DNA from: a virus
Lineage: Duplodnaviria > Heunggongvirae > Uroviricota > Caudoviricetes
Virus record (IMG/VR): IMGVR_UViG_2609459801_000018
DNA length: 18,239 bases
Reading direction: 5' to 3' (one strand)
This document shows positions 739-18,239 of the stretch, one piece after another. A program made the position numbers and the translations under genes. The notes beneath the pieces were generated by a model that was given only the letters and a program-made list of their open reading frames with translations, searched no databases and was not told the DNA's origin. Position 1 is the first letter of the stretch, and each line of letters opens with the position of its first letter.

Positions 739-761
739 GGAAGAGCAGGAGAGCAAAACAG

Positions 762-1229: not shown

Positions 1230-1857
1230 GGCATTCACCAGCGTGGATGAAACCTTTGAGGCTATCCGCGACAGCCTGAATCAGCAGGCCATCAATAACA
1301 TCGCCAGAAAGCTGGCACAGGATTTACGTCGCGCCCAGCAGGCACGTATCCGATCACAAAAAGCGCCGGACGGGACCGAATGGACACCACGCAGACGCCG
1401 CGTAACCCGGATACAGGAGCGCATTCGCTTTATCTGGAATAACGAAGCACGCACGCTGAAAAACTGGCATCACGACACGGGGAAATACGGGCGAACCATT
1501 ACCGGGTGGGATGAGGATAAAAACAATATCCGCACGTTTTACCGGGATGACATCGACCGTTTTCTGGAAATACGCACCCGGCGCATCAACCAGGACAGCA
1601 CAAAGCGCGTCCCCATGTTTGTAAAACTGCGCACCGCCCGCTACCTGAAAGCCCGTGCAGATGCTTCCGGTGTGACGGTGGGTTACAGCGGCGTGGCCGC
1701 ACGTATTGCCCGCGTTCATCAGTTCGGTGAGCGCGATCAGGTTGCGCCGGGCATTTTCACCGATTACCCGGTACGTGAGCTGCTGGGTATCAGCCAGGCA
1801 GATGAGCGCCTGATTTATAACACGGTGCTGGGCCGGATTGCGGAGGCTGTACGGTGA
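1222..1857 (+). CDS. phage virion morphogenesis / tail completion protein, S-like
   Basis: ORF 1213-1857; the ATG at 1222 overlaps the R stop and the gene ends in GTGA overlapping the V start. Position matches P2 gpS, though it is longer than P2 S. Confidence 0.5.
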   Translation: MDKAFTSVDETFEAIRDSLNQQAINNIARKLAQDLRRAQQARIRSQKAPDGTEWTPRRRRVTRIQERIRFIWNNEARTLKNWHHDTGKYGRTITGWDEDKNNIRTFYRDDIDRFLEIRTRRINQDSTKRVPMFVKLRTARYLKARADASGVTVGYSGVAARIARVHQFGERDQVAPGIFTDYPVRELLGISQADERLIYNTVLGRIAEAVR

Positions 1858-2435
1858 GCGCAGAACTCATGCGACTGCTGAGCAATATCATCCGCACCGG
1901 GATCATCTCTGAAGTTGATGAGAAGTCCTGGCGCGTGCGCGTTCGCAGCGGCGAACTGGAAACAGGCTGGCTGCGCTGGAACACCACGCGCGCGGGAGCC
2001 TTCAATGTGTGGCTGCCGCCATCACCAGGCGAACAGGTGGTAATTGCCTGCATTGGCGGCAACCCGGAAACCGCCATGATAATTGGCAGCCTGTGGAGTG
2101 ATGCCAGTCCGGCCCCCGGCAAAAGCCTGAAAGAAATCGTGATCAGCGCGCCGGACGGCGCGGTGTTCCGCTACGACGCAGACGCTGGCGCACTGAGCGC
2201 CAGCGGCATGAAAACGGCCACTTTACAGGCATCCGTCAGCGTGAAACTGGACACGCCCGTCGTGGAATGCACAAACCTTCTGAGAACGGCGACGCTTGAC
2301 GTCACAAAAGGAGGAAAGATGAGCGGCAATATCACGCACAGCGGCGGCAACTTCACCTCAAACGGCATCACAGTGCATACGCATAAACACGGTGGCGTGA
2401 AAGGCGGCAGCGATTCGACAGGAGGCCCGCAGTGA
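1854..2435 (+). CDS. baseplate assembly protein V (central spike)
   Basis: Translation carries gpV-like motifs (IRTGII..., WLRW..RAG, C-terminal NGITVHTHKHGG resembling P2 gpV HTHKH); GTG start with a GGAGG RBS, overlapping the S stop. Confidence 0.85.
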   Translation: MSAELMRLLSNIIRTGIISEVDEKSWRVRVRSGELETGWLRWNTTRAGAFNVWLPPSPGEQVVIACIGGNPETAMIIGSLWSDASPAPGKSLKEIVISAPDGAVFRYDADAGALSASGMKTATLQASVSVKLDTPVVECTNLLRTATLDVTKGGKMSGNITHSGGNFTSNGITVHTHKHGGVKGGSDSTGGPQ

Positions 2436-2782
2436 CAACCCGCTACACAGGAATGAATCCGGACGGGACGGGAAACCTGAACGATATGGAGCACCTGAAA
2501 CAGTCAGTCAGGGATATCCTGATCACCCCGCTGGCAAGCCGGGTTATGCGACGGGAATATGGCAGCCTTGTGCCTGATTTGATTGACGAACCCATGAATA
2601 ACACAACTCGTCTGCAATGCATGAGTGCTGCCGTGATTGCGCTGACACGATGGGAACCCCGCATTGCCCTGGACGCCATCGACGTTGTCTGGAAGGCAGG
2701 AGGCCGCGCCGGGGTGACGCTGTCGGGCACTGTCATGCAGACCATGCAGAATGTTGAATTAACCATCACGCTGAGAGAGTAA
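2432..2782 (+). CDS. baseplate wedge protein W (GPW/gp25 family)
   Basis: 116 aa; the N-terminus MTTRYTGMN... and overall length match P2 gpW. GTG start overlaps the V stop, preceded by ACAGGAGG. Confidence 0.85.
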   Translation: MTTRYTGMNPDGTGNLNDMEHLKQSVRDILITPLASRVMRREYGSLVPDLIDEPMNNTTRLQCMSAAVIALTRWEPRIALDAIDVVWKAGGRAGVTLSGTVMQTMQNVELTITLRE

Positions 2783-2785
2783 ATC

Positions 2786-3682
2786 ATGCCTGCTGTTGAC
2801 CTTTCCCAGTTACCGGAACCCGCCATCATCGCGAAGCCTGATTTTGAGGCAATTCTGGCTGACACAAAGGCCATGATGATTGCGTCCTATCCTGCCGAAC
2901 AGCGTGAAGCCGTCTCCGCCGCGCTGGAGCTGGAATCGGAACCCCTGAACGTTATCGCTCAAACCATGTCTTTTCGTGAAATGCTGTTACGCCAGCGGGT
3001 TAACGAGGGCGCACGCGCCTGCATGTTAAGCCACGGTTCAGGGACAAACCTGGACAACCTCGCGGGCAATATGAACACAAAGCGCCTGGTTATCACTCCG
3101 GCAACGGATACCACCGACGCGGTGATGGAGAGCGACACCTCGCTGAGATTGCGGGCGCAACGGGCGTATGACGGCCTGAGTGTTGCTGGCCCGTCAGGTG
3201 CATACGAGTATTTTGCACGCAGCGCCAGCGGTCTGGTGCGTGATGCGCGGGCCATCAGCCCGTCTCCGGCCTGTGTGACGGTTTCCATCCTGTCCACTGA
3301 AGGCGACGGCACAGCAACGGAGGCGTTGCTTAATACCGTTCGCGCCGTTCTGAATGCAGAGGATACCCGCCCGGTGGCCGACCGCCTGACCGTACAGAGC
3401 GCCAGAATCGTGACATGGCGGCTGAATGCAAAACTGTACTTTTACCCCGGCCCGGAATCCGAACCTATTCTGGCCGCGGCTGAATCGTCGTTCAGGAAGT
3501 GGCTGGCTGAGCAGGGGCTTATCGGTCAGGACGTGGCGTTGTCCGCCATTGCTGCCGCACTGCATGTGCACGGTGTGCAACGCGTGGAGATAATCGAACC
3601 CACACAGAATATGGCCATCAGCGACATACAGGCGGCGCGCTGTGAGTCATTCACCATCAGCGAAGGTGGACGCAATGAGTAA
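2786..3682 (+). CDS. baseplate assembly protein J
   Basis: 298 aa, sitting between W and I as in P2; length and position fit gpJ. Confidence 0.8.
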   Translation: MPAVDLSQLPEPAIIAKPDFEAILADTKAMMIASYPAEQREAVSAALELESEPLNVIAQTMSFREMLLRQRVNEGARACMLSHGSGTNLDNLAGNMNTKRLVITPATDTTDAVMESDTSLRLRAQRAYDGLSVAGPSGAYEYFARSASGLVRDARAISPSPACVTVSILSTEGDGTATEALLNTVRAVLNAEDTRPVADRLTVQSARIVTWRLNAKLYFYPGPESEPILAAAESSFRKWLAEQGLIGQDVALSAIAAALHVHGVQRVEIIEPTQNMAISDIQAARCESFTISEGGRNE

Positions 3683-4283
3683 TTCGTTGTTACCACCATC
3701 AGCCAGCAATTTCATGCGTTGTGCCGAAGCCGTCGGAACACGCATTACAGACATTCCGGTAGACCTCAACACGCTGTGGTCGCCGGACACCTGCCCGGTG
3801 CATCTGCTGCCTTATCTCGCCTGGGCGTTTTCCGTTGACCGCTGGGATCGCAACTGGCCGGAAGAGACAAAGCGACAGGTGATTCGTGATGCATGGCTGA
3901 TACACCGACACAAAGGGACCATCAGCGCACTGCGAAGAGCCGTGGAGCCTCTCGGCTACCTGATTGAAGTAAAGGAGTGGTGGCAACTCAACGAGGAGCC
4001 GGGAACATTTCGCATTGTTGTCGGAGTACTTGATCAGGGCATCACCGATGAAATGCATCAGGAACTTGAGCGCCTTATTGCGGATGCAAAACCAGTAAGT
4101 CGCCATCTGACGGGGCTGGCGATCAGCCTGAGTGTGAACGGAAAGATTTTCGTTGGTACGGGATGCTATCACGGCGATGCCCTGACGGTTTATCCCTACA
4201 CCCCGGAGTCCATTATTGTCGAAGGGGACTATTTCCCTGCCCCGGCCATTCATTTAATTGATAATCTGAGAGTAAACGCATGA
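3675..4283 (+). CDS. baseplate/tail protein I
   Basis: Contains gpI-like motifs (LWSPDTCP..LLPYLAWAFSVDRWD, ERLIADAKPVSRHL). The start is chosen at the ATG at 3675, which overlaps the J stop (ATGAGTAA), rather than the ORF-track start at 3642. Confidence 0.8.
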   Translation: MSNSLLPPSASNFMRCAEAVGTRITDIPVDLNTLWSPDTCPVHLLPYLAWAFSVDRWDRNWPEETKRQVIRDAWLIHRHKGTISALRRAVEPLGYLIEVKEWWQLNEEPGTFRIVVGVLDQGITDEMHQELERLIADAKPVSRHLTGLAISLSVNGKIFVGTGCYHGDALTVYPYTPESIIVEGDYFPAPAIHLIDNLRVNA

Positions 4284-5950
4284 CAGTGAAATACTACGCT
4301 ATTCTGACTAATCAGGGCGCGGCACGACTGGCTAACGCGACGATGCTCGGCAGTAAACTGAATCTGACGCAAATGGCCGTTGGTGATGCAAATGGTGTGT
4401 TACCAACACCAGACCCTGCACAAACAAAACTGATTAACCAGAAACGCATTGCACCGCTGAATCTTCTGAGTGTTGACCCTAACAATCAGAGCCAGATTAT
4501 TGCGGAGCAAATCATCCCTGAAAACGAGGGAGGATTCTGGATCCGTGAGATTGGTCTTTATGATGATGAAGGTGCACTCATTGCGGTGGCAAACTGCCCG
4601 GAAACGTACAAACCGCAGTTGCAGGAAGGCAGTGGACGCACCCAGACTATCCGCATGATTCTGGTTGTCACGAACACCGAAGCCATCACGCTGAAAATCG
4701 ACCCGTCTGTGGTTCTGGCAACCCGCAAATATGTGGATGATAAAATATCAGAGCACGAACAATCACGACGTCACCCGGACGCCTCGCTGACCGTAAAAGG
4801 TTTTACTCAGTTAAGCAGTGCAATTAACAGTGAATCAGAAACACTGGCCGCAACACCGAAAGCGGTTAAGGCTGCATATGACCTGGCTAACGGGAAATAT
4901 ACCGCCCAGAACGCCACCACTACACAAAAAGGGATTGTTCAGCTCAGTAGCGCCACGAACAGCACGTCTGAAACGCTGGCAGCGACACCAAAAGCTGTTA
5001 AGGCGGTAATGGATGAAACGAACAAGAAAGCACCATTAAACAGCCCGGCACTGACCGGAACGCCAACAACACCAACAGCGCCACAGGGGGCTAATAGTAC
5101 CCAGATCGCAAGCACGGCTTTCGTTATGGCCGCGATTGCCGCACTTGTAGATTCGTCACCTGATGCACTGAACACGCTGAACGAACTGGCTGCGGCGCTG
5201 GGCAATGACCCGAATTTTGCGACCACCATGACTAACGCGCTTGCGGGTAAGCAACCGAAGAATGCCACCCTGACGGCGCTGGCGAAGCTTGCTACATCAG
5301 CAGATAAACTCCCATATTTTACAGGGGCAGATCGTGCCGCGTTAACCGCGTTGACAAGTGTTGGACGTGCCATTCTTGGTAAAACCAGCACTCAGGGAGT
5401 TCTTGATTACCTTGGTTTGGGGGAAGGCTCTGCACTGCCCGTTGGTGTACCTGTTCCGTGGCCCTCAGCCACTCCACCAACGGGCTGGCTGAAATGCAAC
5501 GGCGCAGCATTTTCTCCTGAAGATTACCCCAAACTGGCACAGGCTTACCCCGCGAACAAATTACCGGATCTACGGGGTGAATTTATCCGTGGCTGGGATG
5601 ATGGACGTGGCTTGGATGCTGGGCGTGCCTTGCTAAGTCTTCAGGATGACTCTTTTGAAGCGCACAGGCATGAGTCCTTTTTTTATGCGGGTATTTCACG
5701 TAATGAGATCCCATTAAAAAATCTTCCAAGTTCAGACGAGATGCTGACTTTAAGTTCCACAACTAATGCCTTGTCCCCGGACGATATTGATGCCACCAAC
5801 TCGTTAATTGGTAATGACGATTACAACTGTCTTATCGAAGGGAATAAAAATAACAAACGAACAGCGACAGGACTGAGTACCAGTATTGTCGGCACAGCAG
5901 AAACACGCCCCCGCAACGTTGCATTCAATTACATCGTAAGAGCCGCATGA
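4280..5950 (+). CDS. tail fibre protein H; constant N-terminal part (to about 5416) fused to the currently expressed variable C-terminal cassette A (5417-5950)
   Basis: 556 aa. The N-terminal ~370 aa resemble P2 gpH, including the duplicated QLSSA.NS.SETLAATPKAVKA motif; the C-terminal part begins LGEGSALPVGVPVPWP, the conserved cassette head. ATG overlaps the I stop. Confidence 0.9.
   Translation: MTVKYYAILTNQGAARLANATMLGSKLNLTQMAVGDANGVLPTPDPAQTKLINQKRIAPLNLLSVDPNNQSQIIAEQIIPENEGGFWIREIGLYDDEGALIAVANCPETYKPQLQEGSGRTQTIRMILVVTNTEAITLKIDPSVVLATRKYVDDKISEHEQSRRHPDASLTVKGFTQLSSAINSESETLAATPKAVKAAYDLANGKYTAQNATTTQKGIVQLSSATNSTSETLAATPKAVKAVMDETNKKAPLNSPALTGTPTTPTAPQGANSTQIASTAFVMAAIAALVDSSPDALNTLNELAAALGNDPNFATTMTNALAGKQPKNATLTALAKLATSADKLPYFTGADRAALTALTSVGRAILGKTSTQGVLDYLGLGEGSALPVGVPVPWPSATPPTGWLKCNGAAFSPEDYPKLAQAYPANKLPDLRGEFIRGWDDGRGLDAGRALLSLQDDSFEAHRHESFFYAGISRNEIPLKNLPSSDEMLTLSSTTNALSPDDIDATNSLIGNDDYNCLIEGNKNNKRTATGLSTSIVGTAETRPRNVAFNYIVRAA
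5400..5425 (+). other. invertase crossover site 1 (TTCTTGATTACC-TT-GGTTTGGGGGAA), inside the H gene
   Basis: 26-bp hix/gix-like site; the conserved half-site GGTTTGGGGGAA (complement TTCCCCCAAACC) is shared with the four other copies; the left half-site TTCTTGA resembles hixL. Confidence 0.75.
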
Positions 5951-5969
5951 AAACGTTGGTTTGGGGGAA
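5944..5969 (+). other. invertase crossover site 2 (direct orientation relative to site 1)
   Basis: CGCATGAAAACG-TT-GGTTTGGGGGAA; the stop codon of H (TGA, 5948-5950) lies inside the site. Confidence 0.75.
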
Positions 5970-6437
5970 GGCTCTGCACTGCCCGTTGGTGTGCCTGTTC
6001 CATGGCCCTTAGCAACACCACCAACGGGCTGGCTGAAATGTAACGGTGCAGCATTTTCTTCTGAAATGTACCCCAAACTGGCAAAAGCCTACCCCACTAA
6101 TAAATTACCGGATTTACGCGGAGAATTTATCCGTGGCTGGGATGATGGGCGAGGAATTGATGCGGCACGCGCTTTATTGAGCATTCAAAACGGGATGTTG
6201 GAAAAACACCGCCATATTGTTGTAGCTAACGATGGATATGACACAAAAGATGAATGGGAGTTGGCTACGATTTTCAAAAAAACATATACACAAGGCAGGG
6301 GGCTTGATGCCACAAATACAGGAGGGAGTTTGATTCCATCACCAACGCTTCATTCACGAGGAAGTATTGGTAACACAGGTGGTAGTGAAACCCGCCCCCG
6401 CAATATTGCATTTAACTATATCGTGAGGGCGGCTTAG
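5961..6437 (+). CDS. alternative tail-fibre C-terminal cassette B (silent; no ATG, the ORF-track start is TTG)
   Basis: 158 codons, open, beginning LGEGSALPVGVPVPWP...GEFIRGWDDGRG and ending ETRPRNIAFNYIVRAA like the other cassettes. Confidence 0.7.
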   Translation: MGEGSALPVGVPVPWPLATPPTGWLKCNGAAFSSEMYPKLAKAYPTNKLPDLRGEFIRGWDDGRGIDAARALLSIQNGMLEKHRHIVVANDGYDTKDEWELATIFKKTYTQGRGLDATNTGGSLIPSPTLHSRGSIGNTGGSETRPRNIAFNYIVRAA

Positions 6438-6443
6438 TTATAT

Positions 6444-7055
6444 TCAACTGGCTGCTGCCAGTGGTATTTCCGGCAAGTTGATATCTGGTACCATGTTTAT
6501 ATCCATTGCGTTCAGCGCGTCTATATAATCCAGCACGGCATTAAGCCGGGTGGTTTCTGCCTGCGTCAACTTCCGCCCGGCCTGCAACTTCAACTGAATC
6601 AGACTTATGGAAGCCATTGCCGCATCAGCCAGTGACTGGCGCTTGGTTTCTGCCGCTTCTACTGCGGCACGATGTTGTGCCTCAGTATCTGTCACCCATT
6701 TTTCACCATCCCATTTATCGTATGGTGTTAACGGGGCGATAGTGGTTGTAGTTTTCGGGTAGTCACCCAGCGCCGTGATTTCTTCGGTGTTTCCCGTGTC
6801 AGTGCTATAGACGGTTTCACCACGATGGTCTGGCGCATACTCCCATGAACTTAAATTCTCCGAACGGCGGATAGCATAGCCCGCTTTATGTGCGCCCGGG
6901 GCATCTAAACAGGAATTTGCCGGAATACCGACACCCACAGCAAGATATTCAGTTGATTCGGAAATATATTCCCGTGTCTCACCATCATAGTTATAAACGA
7001 CGATGTTTCCTGCCTGTACGGCAATAAGGTCATCATTTAATATCGCGTTATTCAT
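6444..7055 (-). CDS. tail fibre assembly protein (P2 gpG / Mu U family chaperone)
   Basis: 203 aa with a tfa-like C-terminus; its ATG overlaps the stop of cassette C (TAATG), so it is translationally coupled to that cassette. Confidence 0.8.
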   Translation of the reverse strand: MNNAILNDDLIAVQAGNIVVYNYDGETREYISESTEYLAVGVGIPANSCLDAPGAHKAGYAIRRSENLSSWEYAPDHRGETVYSTDTGNTEEITALGDYPKTTTTIAPLTPYDKWDGEKWVTDTEAQHRAAVEAAETKRQSLADAAMASISLIQLKLQAGRKLTQAETTRLNAVLDYIDALNAMDINMVPDINLPEIPLAAAS

Positions 7056-7513
7056 TATGCGGTTCTCACAATATAATTGAAGGCAATATTGCGTGGGCGG
7101 TTTTCATTCCCATCTGAGGATTCCGTTCTGTATTGACTGGTAAATCTACCGTTAATTGCACCTTGCCGGACGGCGTTATCTGTCGACAACAGACTATCCC
7201 CTCTTTTGTCATTTGGCACCAGTACCGTGTTATCCCACGCATCCCATGACCGAATATTATGATAATGACTTCCTGTTAACCACCCCTGCATGCTTAAGAT
7301 GCCCCTTCCGGCATCCACCCCGCGCCCATCATCCCAGCCACGGATAAACTCACCGCGTAAATCAGGTAATTTTAACGTTGGGTAAACCTTTGCCAGATTT
7401 GGGTACATTTCAGAAGAAAATGCTGCACCGTTACATTTCAGCCAGCCCGTTGGTGGTGTGGCTGAGGGCCATGGAACAGGCACACCAACGGGCAGTGCAG
7501 AGCCTTCCCCCAA
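7055..7513 (-). CDS. alternative tail-fibre C-terminal cassette C (silent, inverted), paired with the tfa gene
   Basis: 152 codons, open, with the conserved head and the conserved tail ENRPRNIAFNYIVRTA; starts at the TTG within site 3. Confidence 0.7.
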   Translation of the reverse strand: MGEGSALPVGVPVPWPSATPPTGWLKCNGAAFSSEMYPNLAKVYPTLKLPDLRGEFIRGWDDGRGVDAGRGILSMQGWLTGSHYHNIRSWDAWDNTVLVPNDKRGDSLLSTDNAVRQGAINGRFTSQYRTESSDGNENRPRNIAFNYIVRTA

Positions 7514-7530
7514 ACCAACGTTTTCATGCT
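7505..7530 (-). other. invertase crossover site 3 (inverted relative to site 1)
   Basis: Plus strand reads TTCCCCCAAACC-AA-CGTTTTCATGCT; contains the stop codon of cassette D. Confidence 0.75.
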
Positions 7531-7952
7531 GCCCTTACGATGTAATTAAACGCAATATTACGAGGACGAATGGTTACATAATTGACCCCATCACCTCGTG
7601 AAGGTCCTGCAAATGAAAAACGGGAAAAGCTTGGTTGGTTAGAAACAATTTGGTCATAGTTATTGATTGAATGACCAGACCCAATGTCGAAATTACCTCC
7701 GTAATGAGAAAAACTTGTACCATCCTGCCCTGAAAGCAGGGTACGTCCCGCATCAATCCCGCGCCCATCATCCCAGCCACGGATAAATTCACCCCGTAAA
7801 TCCGGTAATTTATTGGTGGGGTAAGCCTTTGCCAGTCCGGGATACATTTCAGAAGAAAATGCTGCGCCGTTACATTTCAGCCAGCCCGTTGGTGGTGTTG
7901 CTGAGGACCACGGAACGGGCACACCAACGGGCAGCGCAGAGCCTTTCCCCAA
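7524..7952 (-). CDS. alternative tail-fibre C-terminal cassette D (silent, inverted)
   Basis: 142 codons, open; head is GKGSALPVGVPVPW (K in place of E), tail is RPRNIAFNYIVRAA. Confidence 0.7.
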   Translation of the reverse strand: MGKGSALPVGVPVPWSSATPPTGWLKCNGAAFSSEMYPGLAKAYPTNKLPDLRGEFIRGWDDGRGIDAGRTLLSGQDGTSFSHYGGNFDIGSGHSINNYDQIVSNQPSFSRFSFAGPSRGDGVNYVTIRPRNIAFNYIVRAA

Positions 7953-7969
7953 ACCAACGTTTTCATGCT
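7944..7969 (-). other. invertase crossover site 4 (inverted; one mismatch in the conserved half-site, TTTCCCC instead of TTCCCCC)
   Basis: Plus strand reads TTTCCCCAAACC-AA-CGTTTTCATGCT; contains the stop codon of cassette E. Confidence 0.7.
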
Positions 7970-8486
7970 GCCCTTACGATGTAATTAAACGCAATGTTGC
8001 GTGGGCGGTTTTCGTTTGCAGTTGGAACAATTTTTGAAGCATCAAGGCCAATCACTTTTGGGTAAACAGCGCCGTCTGTCCTTTCTGTCACCATACTTCT
8101 GACTAAGGAGAAATAACTATTGTTTGTTGAGGAATTTAAAGGCACCACTGCCCCCTTAAACGAGCCTACTGATTCCCATATTGAATAATTTTCAGTGTTT
8201 ACAGTCTTGAACTCACCATAGATATTACGTATGGCATCACCTTGAGCGGATAATATTGTTCTCCCCGCATCCGCACTACGTCCATCATCCCAGCCACGAA
8301 TAAATTCACCCCGTAAATCCGGTAATTTATTGGTGGGGTAAGCCTTTGCCAGTCCGGGATACATTTCAGAAGAAAATGCTGCGCCGTTACATTTCAGCCA
8401 GCCCGTTGGTGGTGTTGCTGAGGGCCACGGAACGGGCACACCAACAGGCAGCGCAGAACCTTCCCCCAAACCAACGTTTTCGTTTT
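7963..8486 (-). CDS. alternative tail-fibre C-terminal cassette E (silent, inverted)
   Basis: Open frame with conserved head LGEGSALPVGVPVPWPSATPPTGWLKCNGAAFS and tail ENRPRNIAFNYIVRAA. The ORF-track extension to 8526 starts at TTG and runs through site 5, so it is unlikely to be a real start. Confidence 0.65.
8461..8486 (-). other. invertase crossover site 5 (inverted), 55 bp upstream of the invertase start
   Basis: Plus strand reads TTCCCCCAAACC-AA-CGTTTTCGTTTT; same conserved half-site as the others, with a distinct outer arm. Confidence 0.75.
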
Positions 8487-8540
8487 TATCCCTACCTATA
8501 CCAACTATGTATTTTTCACGAAACAAAGAGGATGTTTTTT

Positions 8541-9140
8541 ATGCAAATTGGCTATGTTCGTGTGTCAACAAATGACCAGAACACGGATTTACAACGCAAT
8601 GCACTGAACTGCGCAGGATGTGAACTGATTTTTGAAGATAAAATCAGCGGAACGAAATCAGCCAGACCGGGATTGAAAAAACTGCTCAGAACGCTATCAG
8701 AAGGAGATACGCTGGTTGTCTGGAAGCTGGACAGACTGGGCAGAAGTATGAAACACCTGATCACGCTTATTGAGGAATTGCGGGAAAAAGGTGTTAATTT
8801 CCGTAGTCTGACGGACAGCATTGACACATCAACACCCATGGGGCGTTTCTTTTTTCACGTCATGGGGGCTTTAGCCGAAATGGAACGTGAATTAATTGTA
8901 GAGCGTACACTGGCCGGGCTGGCAGCAGCACGCGCACAAGGACGCATTGGCGGACGTCGCCCGAAGTTGACAAAAGAACAACACGAGCAAATAGCGAGGC
9001 TGATTAAAAACGGTCATGACAGGAAACAACTGGCGATCATTTACGACATCGGCATATCGACGATTTATCGTTATCACCCTGTAGGCGATATACAGGCTGA
9101 AGAAACAACCAGGCAGACTCAGGAAAATGAAAACCGCTAA
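8541..9140 (+). CDS. site-specific DNA invertase, small serine recombinase of the Hin/Gin/Pin/Cin/Min family
   Basis: N-terminus MQIGYVRVSTNDQNTDLQRNAL with the catalytic Ser in VSTNDQ; motifs VVWKLDRLGRS, GRFFFHVMGALAEMERELI..ERT and a C-terminal HTH region, near-identical in pattern to Pin/Gin. AGAGGA RBS 8 nt upstream of the ATG at 8541; the ORF-track start at 8346 is rejected. Confidence 0.93.
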   Translation: MQIGYVRVSTNDQNTDLQRNALNCAGCELIFEDKISGTKSARPGLKKLLRTLSEGDTLVVWKLDRLGRSMKHLITLIEELREKGVNFRSLTDSIDTSTPMGRFFFHVMGALAEMERELIVERTLAGLAAARAQGRIGGRRPKLTKEQHEQIARLIKNGHDRKQLAIIYDIGISTIYRYHPVGDIQAEETTRQTQENENR

Positions 9141-9159
9141 TCTGACCATTAGCGGTTTT
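9130..9159. terminator. bidirectional intrinsic terminator between the convergent invertase and U genes
   Basis: Perfect 12-bp inverted repeat AAAACCGCTAAT / ATTAGCGGTTTT with a 6-nt loop, flanked by T-runs on both strands. Confidence 0.6.
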
Positions 9160-9166
9160 GCGTTAA

Positions 9167-9661
9167 TCAAAACAGCCCTTTAACGGAGCTGGCCGCGCTG
9201 TTAAGGGATGATGTGACCTTATCTTTGAAGCCGGACAGCATATCACTGAACGATGAGGATTGCAGGCGCTCCCGCAAATCCTCATCACAGCGTTCAAGAG
9301 TCAGTGAAAACTCTATCTTTTTCGCCTTACCGTAGCGATCAAACTCGGAGCGGGTCGTATTCGTTCCGGTCAGGACATACATGCCGTAAATCTGCCCGAC
9401 ACCATCAATCAGAGGCCAGGGGCGTCCTGTATATGCCTGCGTGGTCAGCAACGAAAGCGACACTTCGCCACCTGTAATTTCAGGATAAAGCACACCAGAA
9501 AGAACGATGCGATCATCGCCTGCCCCGATATACTGCCAGCTTGCTGAACGGTTAACGCGTTCATTTTTCACATGCCGCCAGCTTTTGTTTTGCTGTAACT
9601 GCTGATGCGGCAACGTACGCAGCTCAAAAACAAACATGCCGTAGATCATCATCATGGCCAT
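9167..9661 (-). CDS. tail protein U
   Basis: 164 aa; N-terminus MAMMMIYGMFVFEL and the GAGDD / PLIDG motifs resemble P2 gpU; immediately downstream of T. Confidence 0.8.
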   Translation of the reverse strand: MAMMMIYGMFVFELRTLPHQQLQQNKSWRHVKNERVNRSASWQYIGAGDDRIVLSGVLYPEITGGEVSLSLLTTQAYTGRPWPLIDGVGQIYGMYVLTGTNTTRSEFDRYGKAKKIEFSLTLERCDEDLRERLQSSSFSDMLSGFKDKVTSSLNSAASSVKGLF

Positions 9662-9667
9662 GACTCC

Positions 9668-12511
9668 TCAATCTTTATCGTAAAAACTGCCACGCCCGGC
9701 ACGGGCGCGCCGTTCCATTTCTGCCCTGACCATTTCACCGACCAGTTTCGCCAGTTCGCGGGGATTCTGCGTAACAACGTTATGCAGATGAACATGAATT
9801 TCACCACCAAATCCGGAGGCAACAGGCTCCCGGTTACGGGAAGTTACAGGAACTGATGCCACTGGAGATCGTATGGCCTCCGCCACCGGGCGGGAGCTGG
9901 CCGCAACAACAGGGACCAGCGCCGGAGGCAGCGGAGCCGGGACCACGGGGGTGATATTCATTGCGGGGGCAGGCTTACTGACCTGTGCAATCTTCCGCTC
10001 CTGCCACTCCCCACGAACAGCAAGTGCGCGGGGCAGGTTCTTAAAGACAATATCGCCGGGGCCAATACGTTTTTTTGTCTCATCAACCAGCTTACCTGTG
10101 TTATCAGCAATTTTGCTGAGTCTGCGTAGCGTGCCGGTATTGCTGTCTGTGAGCGGTTTGTTGTCTTTGGGTTTATCGCCTCCGGTGCCATTGCCATTTT
10201 CCGCAGACTTCGGCGGATTGATTTTCGCAATGTCTCCCTGAAACAGAGCAACCTTGTCCTGAAGAATGGCCGCACGCTGTGCGTCTTCGATTTTCTTTCT
10301 CGCCCTTTCCGCTTCATCCGGAAGCACACCGAGTTTTTCAAGTATCCACGCCAGCGTATCCAGCAACATTTTTGCAGGCGTCAGAACAAGCTGTAGCGCG
10401 CCACCAAGAGCGTTACCGAATATCTCGCCAGCACTGGTACATTTATCCAGCGTTTCCTTGCTGGACTCCATCGGTGACAGCAGCGATTTAAACCAGTTAA
10501 ACACCTGGCTGATCCCGCTTCCGATTGCGTCAAAAACAGGACCAAACCGTTCAAAGGTTTCACGCAACGGGTTCAGCCTTTCCATAATCCCGCTGAACAC
10601 CCCGGCAAAAAATGCCCTGATGGGATCCCAGTATTTCCAGATAAGAACGGCAGCTCCGGCAAGCGCAGCCACGATAAGACCAACCGGACTGAACAGCGCC
10701 CCGATAGCGCCTCCCAGCAAAGAAACGGAACCCGTCACCATTCCCCACAGCGCAGGCAACACCCTGACGACATTCATTGACCGGGTAAGAATGTCAAAAC
10801 CAAGACGCAGGGTGGCCAGCTTCCCGTAAAGCACCCCAATAACCAGTGACAACGAGCCAATCGTTGCAGTCATTGCCAGCAACGCACCGCCTGCTATCAG
10901 TAGCTGGCGCGTCAGTACCGGATGGGCCTGCGCCAGCGAGGTGATTTTTTCAAGCACCCGCGTGAGCCACTGCGTGACAGAACGCAGCGGACCGTCAACC
11001 AGATCACTGATGCGAATACGAAGACCTTCCCATGCGCTGTCGAGATTTTTCAGGTCCCCATCAAGATTATCGGCCATTACTTTTGCAACGCGATCGGCCT
11101 CTCCCCTTGCCCCCTGCAATTCTCTGGTCAGTTTTTGCAGCTCTCCTGAACCAGCCGCCGCAACAAGCGTCTGCAAACCAACGAACGCCTCTTCTCCGGC
11201 GATGTCCTTGAAGAAGGAGACCTGGTCCACCTGTCCGTATTTTTGTGTCGCCTTATAGAGATCAAGCAGCACATCCTCCATCGGGCGCATTTTGCCTCTG
11301 GCGTCAGCAACTGACACCCCCAGCTCTTTCAGTGCATCAGCCGCAGCTTTTGGCGGTGATGCAAGGCGGGACAGACTTGCGCGCATGGCCGTGCCAGCAT
11401 CGCTTCCGCGAAGACCATTATTGGCAAGCATCCCGGCCATAGCCGCCGCTTCTTCAAGACTGATACCAAGTTTTGCGGCAACCGGACCGGTATACTTCAT
11501 GGTTTCGCCCAGCGCGCGTAAATCAGTATTGGTCCGGGTGAATGCCGCTGTCAGCGTATCGCCAACCCGGTCCATTTGATCGGCTGTCAGGTTGAACTGT
11601 GTGAGGATATTGGAGCCTATATCCGCCGTCTCGCCGAGTTCGACGCCACCTGCCAGCGCCATATTAAGAACACCGGGCAATGCGGCCTGAATGGCCTGCG
11701 GAGTAAAACCAGCCATTGCCAGAAAGCTCTGCCCACTGGCGGCATCACTCGCAGTAAACTGTGTTTCAGAGCCAAGTTTTAACGCCTGCTCACGCAGCGC
11801 CTTAAACTGCGGGCTGTTTTTGTCGATTCGCGTCAGTGCCTGAACGCGGGACATCTCTTTGCCGAACCCGATCGCAGGCTGCAAAAAACGCCCGGCAGCA
11901 TAGCCGCCCGCCGCTGCCGCACCAATTGCCAGCGCACCACCTGTTTTCAGTTTTCCCGCGGTTTCCTGCGCGCGCGAATACCGCTCACGCGCCCGCGTTA
12001 CACGCGCAAGCGCCTGCCGTTCGCGTTCAAGCTGGTTGTTGTACTGTTCGGTGCGTCTGATGGCCTGCTGGATGGTGTTATCGCTGCCTGTCAGGGAAAT
12101 GCCGTGGCGTTTCAGCTCTCCGCCAAGCTCCCGCATTTTCTGAATTTCCCGTGTGCGCGATTCATTCAGGCGTTCAAGCCGGGTGCTTAACTGCTGCATC
12201 AGCTTTTGTTGTTTTTCGCTGAGCACTGTACCCGTGCGTTGTAACTGATTAAGGGCGTTAAGCTGGCGTCGTGCTTTCACGATACCCGCATCCGCTTTAC
12301 TGACAGCGTCGCGGGCGCGCTCAAATGATCGCGCCTGACGCTCGAGATTTTTGATCGCCCCCTGCGTTCGCTGGATGGAGTCACCAAACTGCCCCATCAG
12401 GCGGCGGGCGTTTTCGGCAGGCCGGGTCAGCCTGTCAACGGCGCTGAAAGCGACCCGGATATCAAGAGTCTTCATTGTCTGCATTCCCGCTGCGAAGTGC
12501 CGCCCGCTCAC
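9668..12511 (-). CDS. tail tape measure protein T
   Basis: 947 aa, coiled-coil N-terminal region, Ala/Gly-rich hydrophobic central segments, typical position between E' and U. The start is uncertain: GTG at 12511, or ATG at about 12484 or 12475. Confidence 0.88.
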   Translation of the reverse strand: MSGRHFAAGMQTMKTLDIRVAFSAVDRLTRPAENARRLMGQFGDSIQRTQGAIKNLERQARSFERARDAVSKADAGIVKARRQLNALNQLQRTGTVLSEKQQKLMQQLSTRLERLNESRTREIQKMRELGGELKRHGISLTGSDNTIQQAIRRTEQYNNQLERERQALARVTRARERYSRAQETAGKLKTGGALAIGAAAAGGYAAGRFLQPAIGFGKEMSRVQALTRIDKNSPQFKALREQALKLGSETQFTASDAASGQSFLAMAGFTPQAIQAALPGVLNMALAGGVELGETADIGSNILTQFNLTADQMDRVGDTLTAAFTRTNTDLRALGETMKYTGPVAAKLGISLEEAAAMAGMLANNGLRGSDAGTAMRASLSRLASPPKAAADALKELGVSVADARGKMRPMEDVLLDLYKATQKYGQVDQVSFFKDIAGEEAFVGLQTLVAAAGSGELQKLTRELQGARGEADRVAKVMADNLDGDLKNLDSAWEGLRIRISDLVDGPLRSVTQWLTRVLEKITSLAQAHPVLTRQLLIAGGALLAMTATIGSLSLVIGVLYGKLATLRLGFDILTRSMNVVRVLPALWGMVTGSVSLLGGAIGALFSPVGLIVAALAGAAVLIWKYWDPIRAFFAGVFSGIMERLNPLRETFERFGPVFDAIGSGISQVFNWFKSLLSPMESSKETLDKCTSAGEIFGNALGGALQLVLTPAKMLLDTLAWILEKLGVLPDEAERARKKIEDAQRAAILQDKVALFQGDIAKINPPKSAENGNGTGGDKPKDNKPLTDSNTGTLRRLSKIADNTGKLVDETKKRIGPGDIVFKNLPRALAVRGEWQERKIAQVSKPAPAMNITPVVPAPLPPALVPVVAASSRPVAEAIRSPVASVPVTSRNREPVASGFGGEIHVHLHNVVTQNPRELAKLVGEMVRAEMERRARAGRGSFYDKD

Positions 12512-12991
12512 GCCAGCTAACCACTTCGCCGGGCGTCATCATGAAGATTTCGGCGGGCGACCAGTTAAAAATGGCGGCAATATCCGCCACAAAGTCTTCT
12601 ATGTGCTCAAAGCACACAACCGTGATCAGGCTTCCGTCGCCTGTTCGCTCTTCCCGCCAGAGTCCGCACCGCTCAAAAAATTTACGGCAACCACACATAA
12701 CTGAATAAAATCACGGGATGCCATTTTTTTGATCGTCACTTCATCCAGTCGTGGCGAGGTCACGCGTGACAGCAGCGTAAACATGGATTCCGCTTTCAGA
12801 TTCAGCACATCAGACAGCGACAAATCTCGCAGAGATCCAGCCTGCTCAATAGCCCCGGTGATCTCCACATACGTGATTTTTTCGCCGCCTCGCTCAATTG
12901 GTTGGGTAAGTTTTACGCCACGCTCACTGGTTTCTTTCACAGTGTCAGTAACTACCGTGTTTTCGGTATCGATGTTTTTCGTCTCTTTCAT
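12462..12991 (-). CDS. tail assembly chaperone E' (E+E' fusion made by a programmed -1 frameshift near 12674-12680)
   Basis: ORF 12462-12698 is in the -1 frame relative to E and is open from just downstream of the TTTTTTG site. Shifting there gives ...VAVNFFERCGLW..., matching the second ORF. Its end overlaps the start of T. Confidence 0.7.
12626..12991 (-). CDS. tail assembly chaperone E
   Basis: 121 aa, acidic, between the tube gene and T; contains the slippery heptamer, as in the P2 E/E' arrangement. Confidence 0.8.
   Translation of the reverse strand: MKETKNIDTENTVVTDTVKETSERGVKLTQPIERGGEKITYVEITGAIEQAGSLRDLSLSDVLNLKAESMFTLLSRVTSPRLDEVTIKKMASRDFIQLCVVAVNFLSGADSGGKSEQATEA
12674..12680 (-). 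promoter_or_regulatory. programmed -1 ribosomal frameshift slippery site TTTTTTG (E to E')
   Basis: The coding (minus) strand reads AAT TTT TTG AGC in the E frame; the downstream -1 frame is open for about 70 codons. Confidence 0.65.
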
Positions 12992-13045
12992 CAGGAAACT
13001 CCTTTCAGTCAGAGGCGACGCACTGCGCCGCCTGCATATTACTTA

Positions 13046-13558
13046 TCAGCCAAGCCCGAGCGCGGAACGGATGCGATCGGGCACAATGTCCTTGCCGTCC
13101 TTCCGGTAGATGTGGTTCAACAGGTCGATTTCCCACAGCGGGCGATCGTTAACGCTCAGCTTGTAGTAGGTGTTTTTGACAGCGTAAGTGTGTGATGTGG
13201 CTTCGCCCTGTTTGGCCTCCCCCATATCAATTTCCGTCACACGCCCGCGCATCTCGATTTCATACAGATCGCTTTCTGCATCGGTGTAGTATTCACCCGC
13301 AAAACGCAGCAGCGTGCCGTCAATCGTGCCGCCATATTTAAGGAACAGCGCACGAACAGCTCCCCCCATGACAAAGCTCGCATCAAGCGCGGAGTCGTCC
13401 AGACCGAGATCAATACTTACCGCCCCCATCATGCCACCACCCCGGTAGCTGTCGGTTTTGCGCGTCAGCTTAGGCAGAGTGACGGACGTCACCTTACCCA
13501 CTTCGTTTTCACCATCCACAAACAGCGTAAAAAAGCGAAGATGTTTTGGTACAGCCAT
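13046..13558 (-). CDS. major tail tube protein FII
   Basis: 170 aa; start overlaps the FI stop; length and position match P2 FII. Confidence 0.88.
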   Translation of the reverse strand: MAVPKHLRFFTLFVDGENEVGKVTSVTLPKLTRKTDSYRGGGMMGAVSIDLGLDDSALDASFVMGGAVRALFLKYGGTIDGTLLRFAGEYYTDAESDLYEIEMRGRVTEIDMGEAKQGEATSHTYAVKNTYYKLSVNDRPLWEIDLLNHIYRKDGKDIVPDRIRSALGLG

Positions 13559-14742
13559 CAGGCACCTCCCAGCACCGCAAATGCGGGACCAAAGAATTCA
13601 TCAGTAAACGTCTGGTAAAGCTCCATGTCTTCCAGTGGCGGAACGGGCGTATATTTGTAGCGAATACGCACACGTCCCTGACGTAAATCCGTGGTGCCGT
13701 TATCCACCACGTCATACCAGCACTCCGCGCCAATCAGTTTCCCGGCAGTAACCAGCGAATCCAGTTTTGCCCTGATGGCACTGATAACATCCTTCACGTT
13801 CGCAGGCGTCAGTGGACTGTCGATGGTTTCAAACTGCGCTTCCGCAATTGAATCAGCCAGCACCTGTGCGGTTCGGGTATACACCTCAAAGATGTAGGCG
13901 TTCGTTTCCGGTGTGCGGTTGCCCCAGAAGCGGAACCCGTTACGACGAATAATGGTCGTGATTTCTTTGTTGTTGAGGCTGTTGGCATCACTGTCTTCGG
14001 CCTGTAACGACCAGAACACATGCCTCGACATCCCCAGCACATTTTTAACCGGAACGTTGGACAGCGATTTGTGCCAGCCCTGCTCATGGTCAATGTACGC
14101 ACGAAGGCCGCACGCATAAGCAGGCGCGGGGAACGTTTCGTTTTTGCCACTTTTCGGGTTGTAGGCGATGAAGTCAGGCCATAAGAGCATCACCTCACGT
14201 TCGTTGAATTTCTGGCGGTAGGTAATCGCCTCAGCCATCGTGTTACAACCATGACATGCGGCATACACAAACGCGCGCAGTTTACCCGCAATCACGCACA
14301 GGGATTTTGTCACCGCCTCCGTGTCCAGCTCCGGCGCGGCCAGAATACGCGGACGGTATCCGATGCTTTCATCCTGCTCTGCAACAAGCAGCGCATACAT
14401 CCCCGTATAGCTGCCGTCAGATTCAGAACCACCGATAACCAGTTGATCCTGCGTCTTTCCGTTTTCTTCTTTGTGTTCAGCCACGCGAACGACGATCACC
14501 TTTGTGCTCACCTGGTCTGCGATGGCCTTAAGCGCACGATAAAGCGTCCCCGTTGTCCCGCATTTTCCCAGCACGTCATTGACGCGGGTCAGCAGTGTGG
14601 GCTTGTTCAGCGGGAACAGCTTCGCGTCCGCATCATCCGCCGTTGCCACGATACCGATAACGCTGGAATCAACATCGTTAATCGCTGTTACCAGGTCGGT
14701 ACTTTCCGTAACACGGGCACCATGAAAACGAGTTTCACTCAT
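13558..14742 (-). CDS. tail sheath protein FI
   Basis: 394 aa; length, composition and position upstream of the tube gene match the P2 FI sheath. Confidence 0.9.
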   Translation of the reverse strand: MSETRFHGARVTESTDLVTAINDVDSSVIGIVATADDADAKLFPLNKPTLLTRVNDVLGKCGTTGTLYRALKAIADQVSTKVIVVRVAEHKEENGKTQDQLVIGGSESDGSYTGMYALLVAEQDESIGYRPRILAAPELDTEAVTKSLCVIAGKLRAFVYAACHGCNTMAEAITYRQKFNEREVMLLWPDFIAYNPKSGKNETFPAPAYACGLRAYIDHEQGWHKSLSNVPVKNVLGMSRHVFWSLQAEDSDANSLNNKEITTIIRRNGFRFWGNRTPETNAYIFEVYTRTAQVLADSIAEAQFETIDSPLTPANVKDVISAIRAKLDSLVTAGKLIGAECWYDVVDNGTTDLRQGRVRIRYKYTPVPPLEDMELYQTFTDEFFGPAFAVLGGA

Positions 14743-14899
14743 AGCTTCAGCCCCTTGTATCCGTTAAATGATTCGGCAACAATCATCACCCACCACGCGC
14801 GTAATCTCACCCCTGCGCCGTTCTCCCGCCACGGCGACAACAAAAAGCAGTAACCCCCTCCGCACGCACATGCGACCATGCCGCACAGGGAGGGAGCAG

Positions 14900-16009
14900 A
14901 TGACCGACACCACCATGCAATTGCTCAGTCAGGGCACAGACCCCGTGAAAATGCCGGATTTTGATATTCTCGCGGAGGGTAAAACGCTGTCAGGCGTGGC
15001 AGAGTGCCTGATGAGCCTGTCACTGACCGACAACCGGGGATTTGAGGCGGACCAGCTCACCATCACGCTGGATGATGCGGATGGTCAGTTGCAGCTACCG
15101 CCACGGGGCGCGCGCCTGACGGTTCTCATTGGCTGGAAAGGAGAACCGCTGACAGAAAAAGGCACTTACATTGTTGATGAAATCGCTCACGAAGGACCGC
15201 CGGACAGGCTGACTGTTTCAGCCAGAAGCGCAGATTTTCGGGATGAATTTAACGTTAAACGTGAGGTGTCCTGGCATGATGTGACCGTTGAGCGTGTGGT
15301 ATCCGCCATCGCTCATCGGTATGGTCTGAAACCGCAAATCAGCGAAATGCTGATGGATATCGAAATCGACCACGCCGACCAGACCGAAGAAAGCGACATG
15401 TCCTTCCTTACGCGCATGGCGGAAATGCTGGGCGCAATCACCACGGTAAAAAGCGGTAATCTGTTATTCATCATGCCCGGCGGTGGCGTGAACGCACAGG
15501 GCCAGCCGTTGCCATCGTTTGCCATCACACGCAGCAGCGGCGATCGCCATCAGTTCCGCATTGCTGACCGCGAAGCGTATACGGGGGTACGCGCTTACTG
15601 GCTTGATCTTAATTACGGGAAAAAGAAAAAAGTCAGCGTGAAACGCCGTAAACCGCCAAAACCCAAAAAGGAGAAAAGCAGCAGCCGTGAAGGTGATTAT
15701 ATGGAAGGCGCGGAAGGCAATGTGTTTGTGTTACGCAAGACTTATCAGAACGAGCAGACAGCAAGACGCGCAGCGGCGGCAAAGTGGCAGCAACTACAAC
15801 GCGGAGCCGCATCATTCTCCATCACGCTGGCGCGTGGACGTGCAGAACTCTACCCCGAAATGCATGGCACGGTAACAGGATTTAAAAGCGAGATTGATAA
15901 TCAGGACTGGATCATTGCAAAAGCCGAGCACACCATTGATAACAGCGGTTTTACCACGCAGCTTGAGCTTGAGGCAAAAATCCCGGAATGGATAGCGGAA
16001 ACAGAGTGA
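14900..16009 (+). CDS. tail protein D (P2 gpD-like)
   Basis: Motifs TDNRGFEADQL.ITLDD, SARSADFR, SWHD, and the lysine-rich KKKVSVKRRKPPKPKKEK segment as in P2 gpD. Start chosen at the ATG at 14900, preceded by GGGAGGGAG, rather than the ORF-track start at 14768. Confidence 0.85.
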   Translation: MTDTTMQLLSQGTDPVKMPDFDILAEGKTLSGVAECLMSLSLTDNRGFEADQLTITLDDADGQLQLPPRGARLTVLIGWKGEPLTEKGTYIVDEIAHEGPPDRLTVSARSADFRDEFNVKREVSWHDVTVERVVSAIAHRYGLKPQISEMLMDIEIDHADQTEESDMSFLTRMAEMLGAITTVKSGNLLFIMPGGGVNAQGQPLPSFAITRSSGDRHQFRIADREAYTGVRAYWLDLNYGKKKKVSVKRRKPPKPKKEKSSSREGDYMEGAEGNVFVLRKTYQNEQTARRAAAAKWQQLQRGAASFSITLARGRAELYPEMHGTVTGFKSEIDNQDWIIAKAEHTIDNSGFTTQLELEAKIPEWIAETE

Positions 16010-16049
16010 GCAACTTAGAATAGGCAGCACCACGTTAAGGGAGGTCGCT

Positions 16050-16310
16050 ATGTTCCGTTGTCCGCTTTGTGGCGCATCTGCCCGTATCCGCACCAGTCGT
16101 TCGGAAAATGATTCAAACACCGTACGGAAAAAATATTACCAGTGTAACAACCTGGAATGCGGCATAAGTTTCTCAACACTGGAAGCTTTCCATAAATTCA
16201 CATCGAAACACGCCCCCGGCGTTCACTCTTCAGAAGGTATCCCGTGGCATGAGTTGCCAGCTTCACACAGGGGAAACAATCAGATGAGTTTGCCTTTATC
16301 TCAGAATTAA
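16050..16310 (+). CDS. ogr: Ogr/Delta-family zinc-finger late transcription activator
   Basis: N-terminus MFRCPLCGASARIRTSR....YYQCNNLECGISF reproduces the Ogr C-x2-C...C-x4-C zinc-finger pattern; AAGGGAGG RBS; located after D as in P2. Confidence 0.8.
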   Translation: MFRCPLCGASARIRTSRSENDSNTVRKKYYQCNNLECGISFSTLEAFHKFTSKHAPGVHSSEGIPWHELPASHRGNNQMSLPLSQN

Positions 16311-16370
16311 CAGGCAGAATTGCCGGAGTAACAAAAACGCGATAGATTACGCGCGGGTGCCTTTCGGCTG

Positions 16371-16583
16371 ATGGTCGGAGGGAATACCCGAAGGCCAGAT
16401 GTGGAAAGGCCCCGGAAAACATCTCTGTTTAACCGAGGCCCTAACCGCATTACCTTGACAAGTGAAAGGTTAGCGCCTCTCCGGAAAAGGAGCAAGTGCT
16501 ATGTCGCAAAAATCGCTTACGGCCATCACGTTCTGCGTGACGGCAATCCTCATCATCTGGATGCTGCACGGTTCGCTGTGTGA
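16371..16583 (+). CDS. mok-like overlapping reading frame of a hok/sok-type locus
   Basis: 70-codon ORF that starts upstream of the hok-like ORF and overlaps it in another frame, the arrangement of mok/hok in plasmid R1 (mok there is also 70 codons). Confidence 0.4.
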   Translation: MVGGNTRRPDVERPRKTSLFNRGPNRITLTSERLAPLRKRSKCYVAKIAYGHHVLRDGNPHHLDAARFAV

Positions 16584-16641
16584 AATACGGATGAGTTTCT
16601 GGGGAGCGGAGTTTGCGGCGTTCTTACAGTGTAAGCAGTAA
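16501..16641 (+). CDS. Hok/Gef-family type I toxin (small membrane peptide)
   Basis: 46-codon ORF, not in the supplied track (too short): MSQKSLTAITFCVTAILIIWMLHGSLCEIRMSFWGAEFAAFLQCKQ. Hydrophobic N-terminal helix followed by SLCEI...E.AAF..C, the Hok family signature, closest to HokA by memory. AAGGAG RBS 8 nt upstream. Confidence 0.65.
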   Translation: MSQKSLTAITFCVTAILIIWMLHGSLCEIRMSFWGAEFAAFLQCKQ

Positions 16642-16734
16642 GGAAACCGCGACGGGGAAGGCAACTTCCCCGTCAATCGGTTGCCAGGGTAAAGGTCGAA
16701 AAGACACCCTATTTCCAGTTGACGTGAACAACAA

Positions 16735-16768
16735 GCCCGCAGCGTAAAAACTGCGGGTTTTCTTTTTG
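16735..16768 (+). terminator. intrinsic terminator downstream of the hok-like gene
   Basis: Stem CCCGCAG / CTGCGGG with an 8-nt loop, followed by TTTTCTTTTT. Confidence 0.6.
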
Positions 16769-16790
16769 GTTCCCTCACTCATGAGGACAC

Positions 16791-16830
16791 CAAAAAACAA
16801 AGCCCACAGCATAGAAACTGTGGGCTTTTT
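16791..16830. terminator. bidirectional intrinsic terminator; likely serS terminator on the minus strand
   Basis: Stem AGCCCACAG / CTGTGGGCT, with TTTTT on the plus side and, on the minus strand, TTGTTTTTTGG. Confidence 0.55.

Positions 16831-16946: not shown

Positions 16947-18239
<1,293 letters not shown>

Follow-up and report, generated by a model that had tools for sequence, protein, structure and literature searches.

The window analysed here is a stretch of DNA of 18,239 nucleotides (nt), IMG/VR record IMGVR_UViG_2609459801_000018, which carries a tail gene set of the kind known from phage P2 but, unlike P2, with the genes from the sheath gene FI to gene U lying on the strand opposite to that of the neighbouring tail genes. 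Homologues of V, W, J, I, H, FI, FII, E/E′, T, U, D and Ogr were recognised with Pfam and PHROG, so that the P2-type contractile tail set is complete, and the tail proteins are 25–74% identical to those of P2 (tblastn). Judged by homology, the window is the tail half of a P88-like prophage (Xuanwuvirus, Peduoviridae) adjoining serS and the right-hand chromosomal flank, since the homology to P88 stops near 16767 and serS lies at 16947–18239. In megablast searches of phage records, positions 8300–16400 were 92–95% identical, over 97% of the query, to Xuanwuvirus genomes (P88, 500465-2, P884B11, Citrobacter PhiSM and others). P88 aligned with 8547–16767 as a single collinear segment of 8.2 kb at 93% nucleotide identity, and the baseplate genes matched those of P88 at 96% identity across 3.3 kb. 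Under ICTV practice, the genus cut-off is about 70% identity over the whole genome; the window covers only the tail half of the prophage, and its fibre region and positions 1–803 are without homology to P88.

The features that define the arrangement are as follows.

1854–5950, plus strand: V, W, J, I and H (open reading frame (ORF) map, similarity to P2)
8541–9140, plus strand: DNA invertase, a serine recombinase with catalytic Ser9 in GYVRVSTNDQ (Pfam Resolvase and HTH_7; translation)
9130–9159, both strands: hairpin (12-bp stem, T runs on either strand) set between the stops of the convergent invertase and U genes, at the left block junction (terminator scan)
9167–9661, minus strand: gpU tail protein, last gene of the inverted operon (Pfam Phage_P2_GpU, E 1.5e-38)
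9668–12511, minus strand: gpT tape measure, the longest ORF (Pfam PhageMin_Tail, E 1.6e-56)
12626–12991, minus strand: gpE (PHROG 103 tail protein, E 2.9e-35)
12462–12991, minus strand: E+E′ product of a −1 frameshift (slip site TTTTTTG at 12674–12680; E′ frame to 12462)
13046–13558, minus strand: gpFII tail tube (Pfam Phage_tube, E 8.3e-46)
13558–14742, minus strand: gpFI tail sheath, first gene of the inverted operon (Pfam sheath domains)
14900–16009, plus strand: gpD baseplate hub/spike (Pfam Phage_GPD; PHROG 52, E 2.9e-165; start in agreement with the P88 annotation)
16050–16310, plus strand: Ogr-family zinc-finger late activator, CX2C-X24-CX4C (Pfam Ogr_Delta, E 1e-15; translation)

The plus strand carries S, V, W, J, I and H at 1213–5950, followed by a tail-fibre inversion region and the serine invertase gene; the latter shares the strand of H and is not part of the inverted block. 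The block U-T-E/E′-FII-FI spans 9167–14742 (5576 bp), and the D start is 5.2 kb away from U. Since D starts at the ATG at 14900, with the Shine-Dalgarno sequence GGGAGGGAG in front of it (the ORF start at 14768 being an in-frame upstream extension), the spacer between FI and D comprises the 157 bp at 14743–14899. The window FI protein is 98% identical to that of P88 and 45% identical to that of P2, and the gene strands annotated in P88 and PhiSM are identical to those in the window.

In the P2 record NC_001895, V-W-J-I-H-G and FI-FII-E-E′-T-U-D-ogr all lie on one strand, and D is part of the F operon started by the promoter pF; its start at 22791 coincides with the end of U, so that D overlaps the U end and has no promoter of its own. 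In the window D does not follow U on the same strand, but lies on the plus strand, divergent from FI on the minus strand. A first-pass annotation of the window, made from the sequence alone and set against the P2 gene order, had described FI, FII, E/E′, T and U as minus-strand genes with plus-strand genes on either side, fibre and invertase on one and D-ogr on the other; the ORF map, Pfam and PHROG confirm this. Its account of P2, a fully co-directional order with D last in the F operon, is correct by the annotated record, and the sizes that it gave (a block of about 5.6 kb, with D divergent from FI and more than 5 kb off U) agree with those measured.

Distribution of the inverted order

The order seen in the window recurs well outside Xuanwuvirus, in SEN5 of Salmonella (Senquatrovirus; FI 56% identical to the window), which has no invertase, and in Kp4848-1 of Klebsiella (Reipivirus; FI 71% identical). 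For a wider survey, one genome per bacterial species was scanned with an FI profile, 80 loci were fetched and the window proteins mapped onto them, and reference phages were added. Among these species-representative loci and reference phages, D was divergent from FI in 59 elements, and 27 had the P2 order. The identity of FI to that of the window separates the two orders without exception: at 54% and above the order was always inverted (59/59), and at 51% and below it was always that of P2 (27/27). The latter set includes P2, phiCTX and Burkholderiales prophages, P2 and phiCTX being co-directional. The inverted order was found in 55 prophages from more than 20 genera of Enterobacterales, with hosts that include Salmonella, Citrobacter, Edwardsiella, Enterobacter, Klebsiella, Kosakonia, Erwinia and Pantoea as well as Brenneria, Pectobacterium, Serratia, Providencia, Morganella, Xenorhabdus and Hafnia. 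Two neighbour-joining trees rooted on phiCTX as outgroup, one of FI+FII with 58 tips and an independent one of D with 56, each recovered the inverted class as monophyletic.

Of 5426 complete E. coli genomes searched, 1380 matched the FI–D junction, which was intact in 1357 of them, so that the lineage is present in about a quarter of complete E. coli genomes. The left side of the block is more variable. Of about 1500 E. coli genomes with a match to the U end, only 620 have the invertase beside it; in the others homology ends about 25–30 bp past the U stop codon, at the margin of the terminator hairpin. On this pattern of matches the fibre/U junction is a variable cargo position, which may correspond to the Z/fun locus that P2 has between G and FI.

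Synteny therefore bears out the flip relative to P2 as real and uniform across the P88-like lineage. A single ancestral inversion of the FI–U block, as the first-pass annotation proposed, stands as the best explanation of the order; what does not stand is a rearrangement of this particular element, because all close and moderately distant relatives share the order, a result which that annotation had itself equated with a lineage trait. By its distribution, the FI–U inversion is an old, fixed and very common trait of the P88-like lineage and not an event in this genome. P88 and PhiSM can be induced and are infective (PMC5285337; PMC6456863), and the inverted arrangement is therefore fully functional.

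Some surveyed loci depart from the general picture in detail. The best FI and D alignments are separated by 335–845 bp in L045, L053, L060 and L065; the FI or D match is without its N-terminal part in L020, L045, L060 and L065; and in L020 the I and H genes have the opposite orientation beyond its invertase. These five loci are probably degraded or insertion sequence-disrupted prophages.

The FI–D spacer and the left junction

The spacer of the window differs by one base from those of its Xuanwuvirus relatives. When 54 distinct FI–D spacers from the clade (136–198 bp, otherwise poorly conserved) were aligned, three conserved blocks became apparent: a central dyad T(G/C)T-N12-ACA, usually extended to ACAA; an AT..T motif on the FI side; and, on the D side, CGCGCG..TG followed by a hexamer. 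In the window these correspond to the following elements.

14821–14840, both strands: Ogr-type activator dyad TTCT-CCCGCCACGGCG-ACAA (core TCT at 14822–14824, ACA at 14837–14839; centre 14830.5)
14787 to 14782, minus strand: predicted −10 element GATGAT of the FI promoter, the pF equivalent (3′ end 48.5 bp off the dyad centre; predicted start about 14775)
14871–14879, plus strand: predicted extended −10 element TG-c-GACCAT of the D promoter (3′ end 48.5 bp off the dyad centre; predicted start about 14886)

The dyad at 14821–14840 is the sole match to its pattern in the window. P2 late promoters have the consensus TGT-N12-ACA and depend on Ogr (PMC3931495), and when a distance of 55.5 bp on either side of the dyad centre was applied to the divergent P2 promoters pP and pO, it returned 3016 and 3127, exactly the annotated starts. 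The window dyad likewise lies about 55 bp upstream of both predicted starts, with the left arm in the variant form TCT, many clade members having TGT, and the window encodes a cognate C4 zinc-finger activator of the Ogr_Delta family. The Ogr site being a dyad with its centre some 55 bp upstream of the start, a single one is able to act in either direction. Hexamers that fit NAxxxT are present at the offset of 48.5 on the FI side in 53 of the 54 spacers, on the D side in 51 and on both sides in 50; at any other offset between 30.5 and 61.5 they occur in at most 11. The predicted D start falls 14 nt before the D ATG. Apparently, then, the predicted Ogr-type site serves both the FI and the D promoter, and the promoter of its own that the first-pass annotation called for upstream of D, within 14743–14899, is borne out at the level of sequence by the conserved dyad and its −10 hexamers.

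A dyad of this kind also marks other late control regions of P88, SEN5 and Kp4848-1. P88 has three matches genome-wide, two of them in the P–O and FI–D spacers, and SEN5 has perfect TTGT-N12-ACAA palindromes in the P–O, S–V and FI–D spacers, with one more, non-palindromic match within a coding region. In Kp4848-1, GTCT-N12-ACAAC occurs twice in the genome, in the FI–D spacer and at 15237, the latter being probably the P–O spacer. The dyad centre lies 75–88 bp from the FI ATG in the clade, 83 bp from it at P2 pF and 76–81 bp in four P2-order prophages, which have no −10 hexamer at the mirror position; the dyad-plus-48.5 rule located a pF dyad in only these four loci and P2 among elements with the P2 order, and the comparison with the ancestral state is accordingly one of few sequences.

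Two further observations concern the spacer. In four Providencia loci (L040, L041, L043, L060) the dyad position is occupied by TTCTC-N10-GAGAA, both arms being changed symmetrically, and the −10 elements are still at ±48.5, which suggests that the dyad may have co-evolved with its Ogr protein in these elements. A small ‘hypothetical protein’ is annotated over the spacer in P88 (33155–33286) and in RefSeq E. coli genomes, corresponding to 14722–14853 of the window; it showed no conserved frame or sequence in 54 relatives, and the annotation is probably spurious and would overlie the promoter region.

At the left junction, the hairpin at 9130–9159 folds with −16.9 kcal/mol on the plus strand and −15.6 kcal/mol on the minus strand (z −4.2 and −4.3), and none of 200 shuffled sequences was as stable. 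It is a probable bidirectional intrinsic terminator for the convergent units. In 49 of 54 clade members U is followed within 100 nt by a hairpin of at least −10 kcal/mol in strength, a count made without shuffle control.

Origin of the arrangement

The reading that we favour, and hold to be likely, is that of one old inversion of FI-FII-E/E′-T-U, now fixed, with a single dyad serving both FI and D. Relative to P2, the operon would have been turned round a single time in the distant past, one breakpoint falling a short way upstream of the site at which the F-operon late promoter is activated and the other between U and D. The FI promoter (pF) and its dyad would thereby have moved with the block and come to lie back-to-back with D, which could then have gained a −10 element on the side of that dyad left free. 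Transcription of FI–U would proceed leftward from about 14775 and that of D rightward from about 14886, the two starts being 111 bp apart, and the hairpin at 9130–9159 would close the convergent U/invertase junction by terminating in both directions. With somewhat less assurance, we think it probable that the palindromic Ogr site was co-opted after the inversion to drive both the sheath-to-U operon and the detached D, and that its symmetry is what allowed the inversion to be tolerated and fixed throughout the lineage. That the block was inverted in situ, and not acquired as a foreign module, is favoured by the nearly equal divergence from P2 of genes inside it (FI 45%, FII 43% and U 46% identity) and outside it (V 47%, W 44% and D 49%).

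Several observations weigh against this account. In the tree of the baseplate genes V/W/J, inverted-order and P2-order elements are not separated (loci L003–L088), which indicates that baseplate modules have probably been exchanged between the two lineages; the lineage is a mosaic, and this leaves room for module exchange. The left arm of the Xuanwuvirus dyad is TCT instead of TGT. A generic scan of the window for TGT-N12-ACA gave two matches against 4.95 expected, none of them in the spacer, and so misses the FI–D site, whose motif became visible only through the alignment of 54 relatives. Those 54 spacers are related sequences, and counts among them are not independent events. By the predicted start the leader of D would be only about 14 nt long, and both promoters at the shared dyad are sequence predictions.

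The proximity of a Hin/Gin/Cin-type invertase raises the question of whether the FI–U block might be a programmed, reversible segment flipped by that enzyme. The invertase gene abuts the block, and active-looking crossover sites for tail-fibre cassettes are present in the window. All five of these sites, however, lie within 5408–8479 and serve the fibre cassettes, and no cix/hix-like site was found at 9141–9166 or 14743–14899. The first-pass annotation had suggested looking at these two junctions for inverted repeats or remnants of recombination sites, and the search of both yielded none; over 5500–15100 as a whole, only the fibre-cassette repeats and pairs of 14–26 nt at chance level were found, none of which joins the two junctions. 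Most clade members are without the invertase and have the same orientation all the same, only one orientation being seen in 59 of 59 clade members and at the 1357 E. coli junctions, and a flip would detach D from its promoter. In P2-order relatives with an invertase (L064, L074, L086), the gene has its place between H and FI, on the H strand as in the window, and is therefore not part of the inverted segment. A programmed flip is highly improbable on these grounds. A different modular order, which the first-pass annotation had mentioned as an alternative, would mean that no inversion in situ took place and that the sheath-to-U module was swapped in, reversed, from another P2-like phage. The stem of the clade is long in the FI+FII tree (0.219, against 0.063 for D), and the incongruence of the V/W/J tree with the other two shows that tail modules have been exchanged. 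The similar divergence of block and flanking genes from P2, however, speaks against such a swap, as do the monophyly of D for the same taxa, the distance from the FI promoter to FI, which is the same as at P2 pF, and the fact that no donor lineage with a closer FI–U module is present among 537 phage records; we regard a swap as unlikely.

D might also be expressed independently of the shared dyad, from an activator-independent sigma-70 promoter, or by read-through or antisense transcription that begins elsewhere. The hexamer GACCAT makes a weak −10 element, and in a generic sigma-70 scan promoter-like sites were no commoner in the window than in shuffled sequences, with nothing useful in the spacer and no site at all on its plus strand. 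P2 late promoters, however, also do without a −35 element, and their −10 elements are weak. In 51 of 54 diverged spacers the +48.5 offset has been kept along with the TG of the extended −10 motif, no conserved ORF or other element is present in the spacer, and read-through would have to cross the terminator at 9130–9159 and then 5.6 kb of antisense sequence. Expression of D independently of the dyad is, on balance, unlikely. As for an assembly artefact in the window, nothing was found to support it, and the same junctions are present in P88, PhiSM and SEN5, all of which have been isolated, sequenced and found infective, and in the 1357 complete E. coli genomes; there is next to no chance that the order arose in this way. 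A single ancient inversion with a shared activator site thus remains our preferred explanation.

Flanking features and comparison with other phages

To the left of the block, 5408–8530 forms a multi-cassette fibre inversion region. Four identical crossover cores, AAACCAACGTTT, lie at 5951–5962 on the minus strand and at 7512–7523, 7951–7962 and 8468–8479 on the plus strand, and H itself contains a fifth site, at 5408–5433, whose left half differs. Five fibre C-terminal cassettes of about 150 amino acids are present: the H tail at 5417–5950, 5961–6437 on the plus strand, and 7055–7513, 7524–7952 and 7963–8526 on the minus strand. A single chaperone gene (6444–7055, minus strand) is antisense to H in the present orientation. 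In P88, by contrast, there are two fibre cassettes, each with its own chaperone.

The leftmost 800 bp or so of the window (1–803) are without homology to P88 or PhiSM. The ORF at 1–738, directly upstream of an R-like tail-terminator gene (762–1229), has hits to PHROGs without an assigned function (3591, 143); it could represent cargo or an alternative module. On the right, the zinc-finger spacing of the window Ogr is CX2C-X24-CX4C, as against CX2CX22CX4C reported for P2. D and ogr are a mere 40 bp apart, which places any ogr promoter within the 3′ end of D; a sigma-70-like 9/12 match was noted at 15872–15901. Homology to P88 stops near 16767–16792, with several terminator-like hairpins at 16650–16828, and is followed by the chromosomal gene:

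16947–18239, minus strand: serS, seryl-tRNA synthetase (Pfam)

By this boundary the prophage end is just downstream of serS. A tRNA scan found no tRNA genes in the window, and no Rfam family matched it at gathering thresholds.

As a gene order this is ordinary, since reference genomes of a named genus already show it in their annotation. The FI–U inversion is nevertheless unmentioned in the papers on P88, on P2-like diversity (2026), on the C. rodentium prophage, on Burkholderia P2-like phages, on defence hotspots (2026) and on P2 phylogeny (2011), and a promoter site shared by FI and D found no mention in the literature searched. The regulatory reading may therefore be undescribed, but would extend what is known of P2 only modestly. 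Outside annotation and phage taxonomy the arrangement is of little consequence. Within these fields, the inversion provides a clean single-event synapomorphy that sets the P88/SEN4/Reipivirus-type lineage apart from P2, 186 and phiCTX-type Peduoviridae, and the orientation of FI–U could be used as a quick classifier of P2-like prophages. The bidirectional FI/D control region would be a tidy example of how a symmetric activator site lets an inversion split an operon, and the predicted starts at 14775 and 14886, together with the dyad at 14821–14840, offer precise targets for work on prophages that are very common in E. coli.

Rearrangement of late operons with retention of their promoters has been described for other P2-like phages, such as Smp131 of Stenotrophomonas, in which the membership of the late tail operon is rearranged, the TGT-N12-ACA promoters are kept and the PP′/PO′ site is shared (PMC3931495). 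Unlike in the window, the genes in Smp131 have been exchanged between co-directional operons, with no inversion of FI–U. The F operon of P2 has the same genes as the window block in the same internal order (32–49% protein identity), the same TTTTTTG frameshift in E/E′, an activator dyad about 83 bp upstream of the FI ATG, and ogr after D; it differs in that FI–U is inverted in the window, with D split off and divergent from FI. The closest parallel to the predicted control region is the pP/pO pair of P2, in which one dyad lies midway between divergent late promoters whose starts (3016 and 3127, with the site at 3057–3087) are likewise 111 bp apart, in a spacer of 173 bp from start codon to start codon as compared with 157 bp in the window. 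The P2 pair controls the terminase/portal and capsid genes, whereas the pair predicted here, with TCT as its left arm, would control those of the sheath and tube on one side and of the hub on the other.

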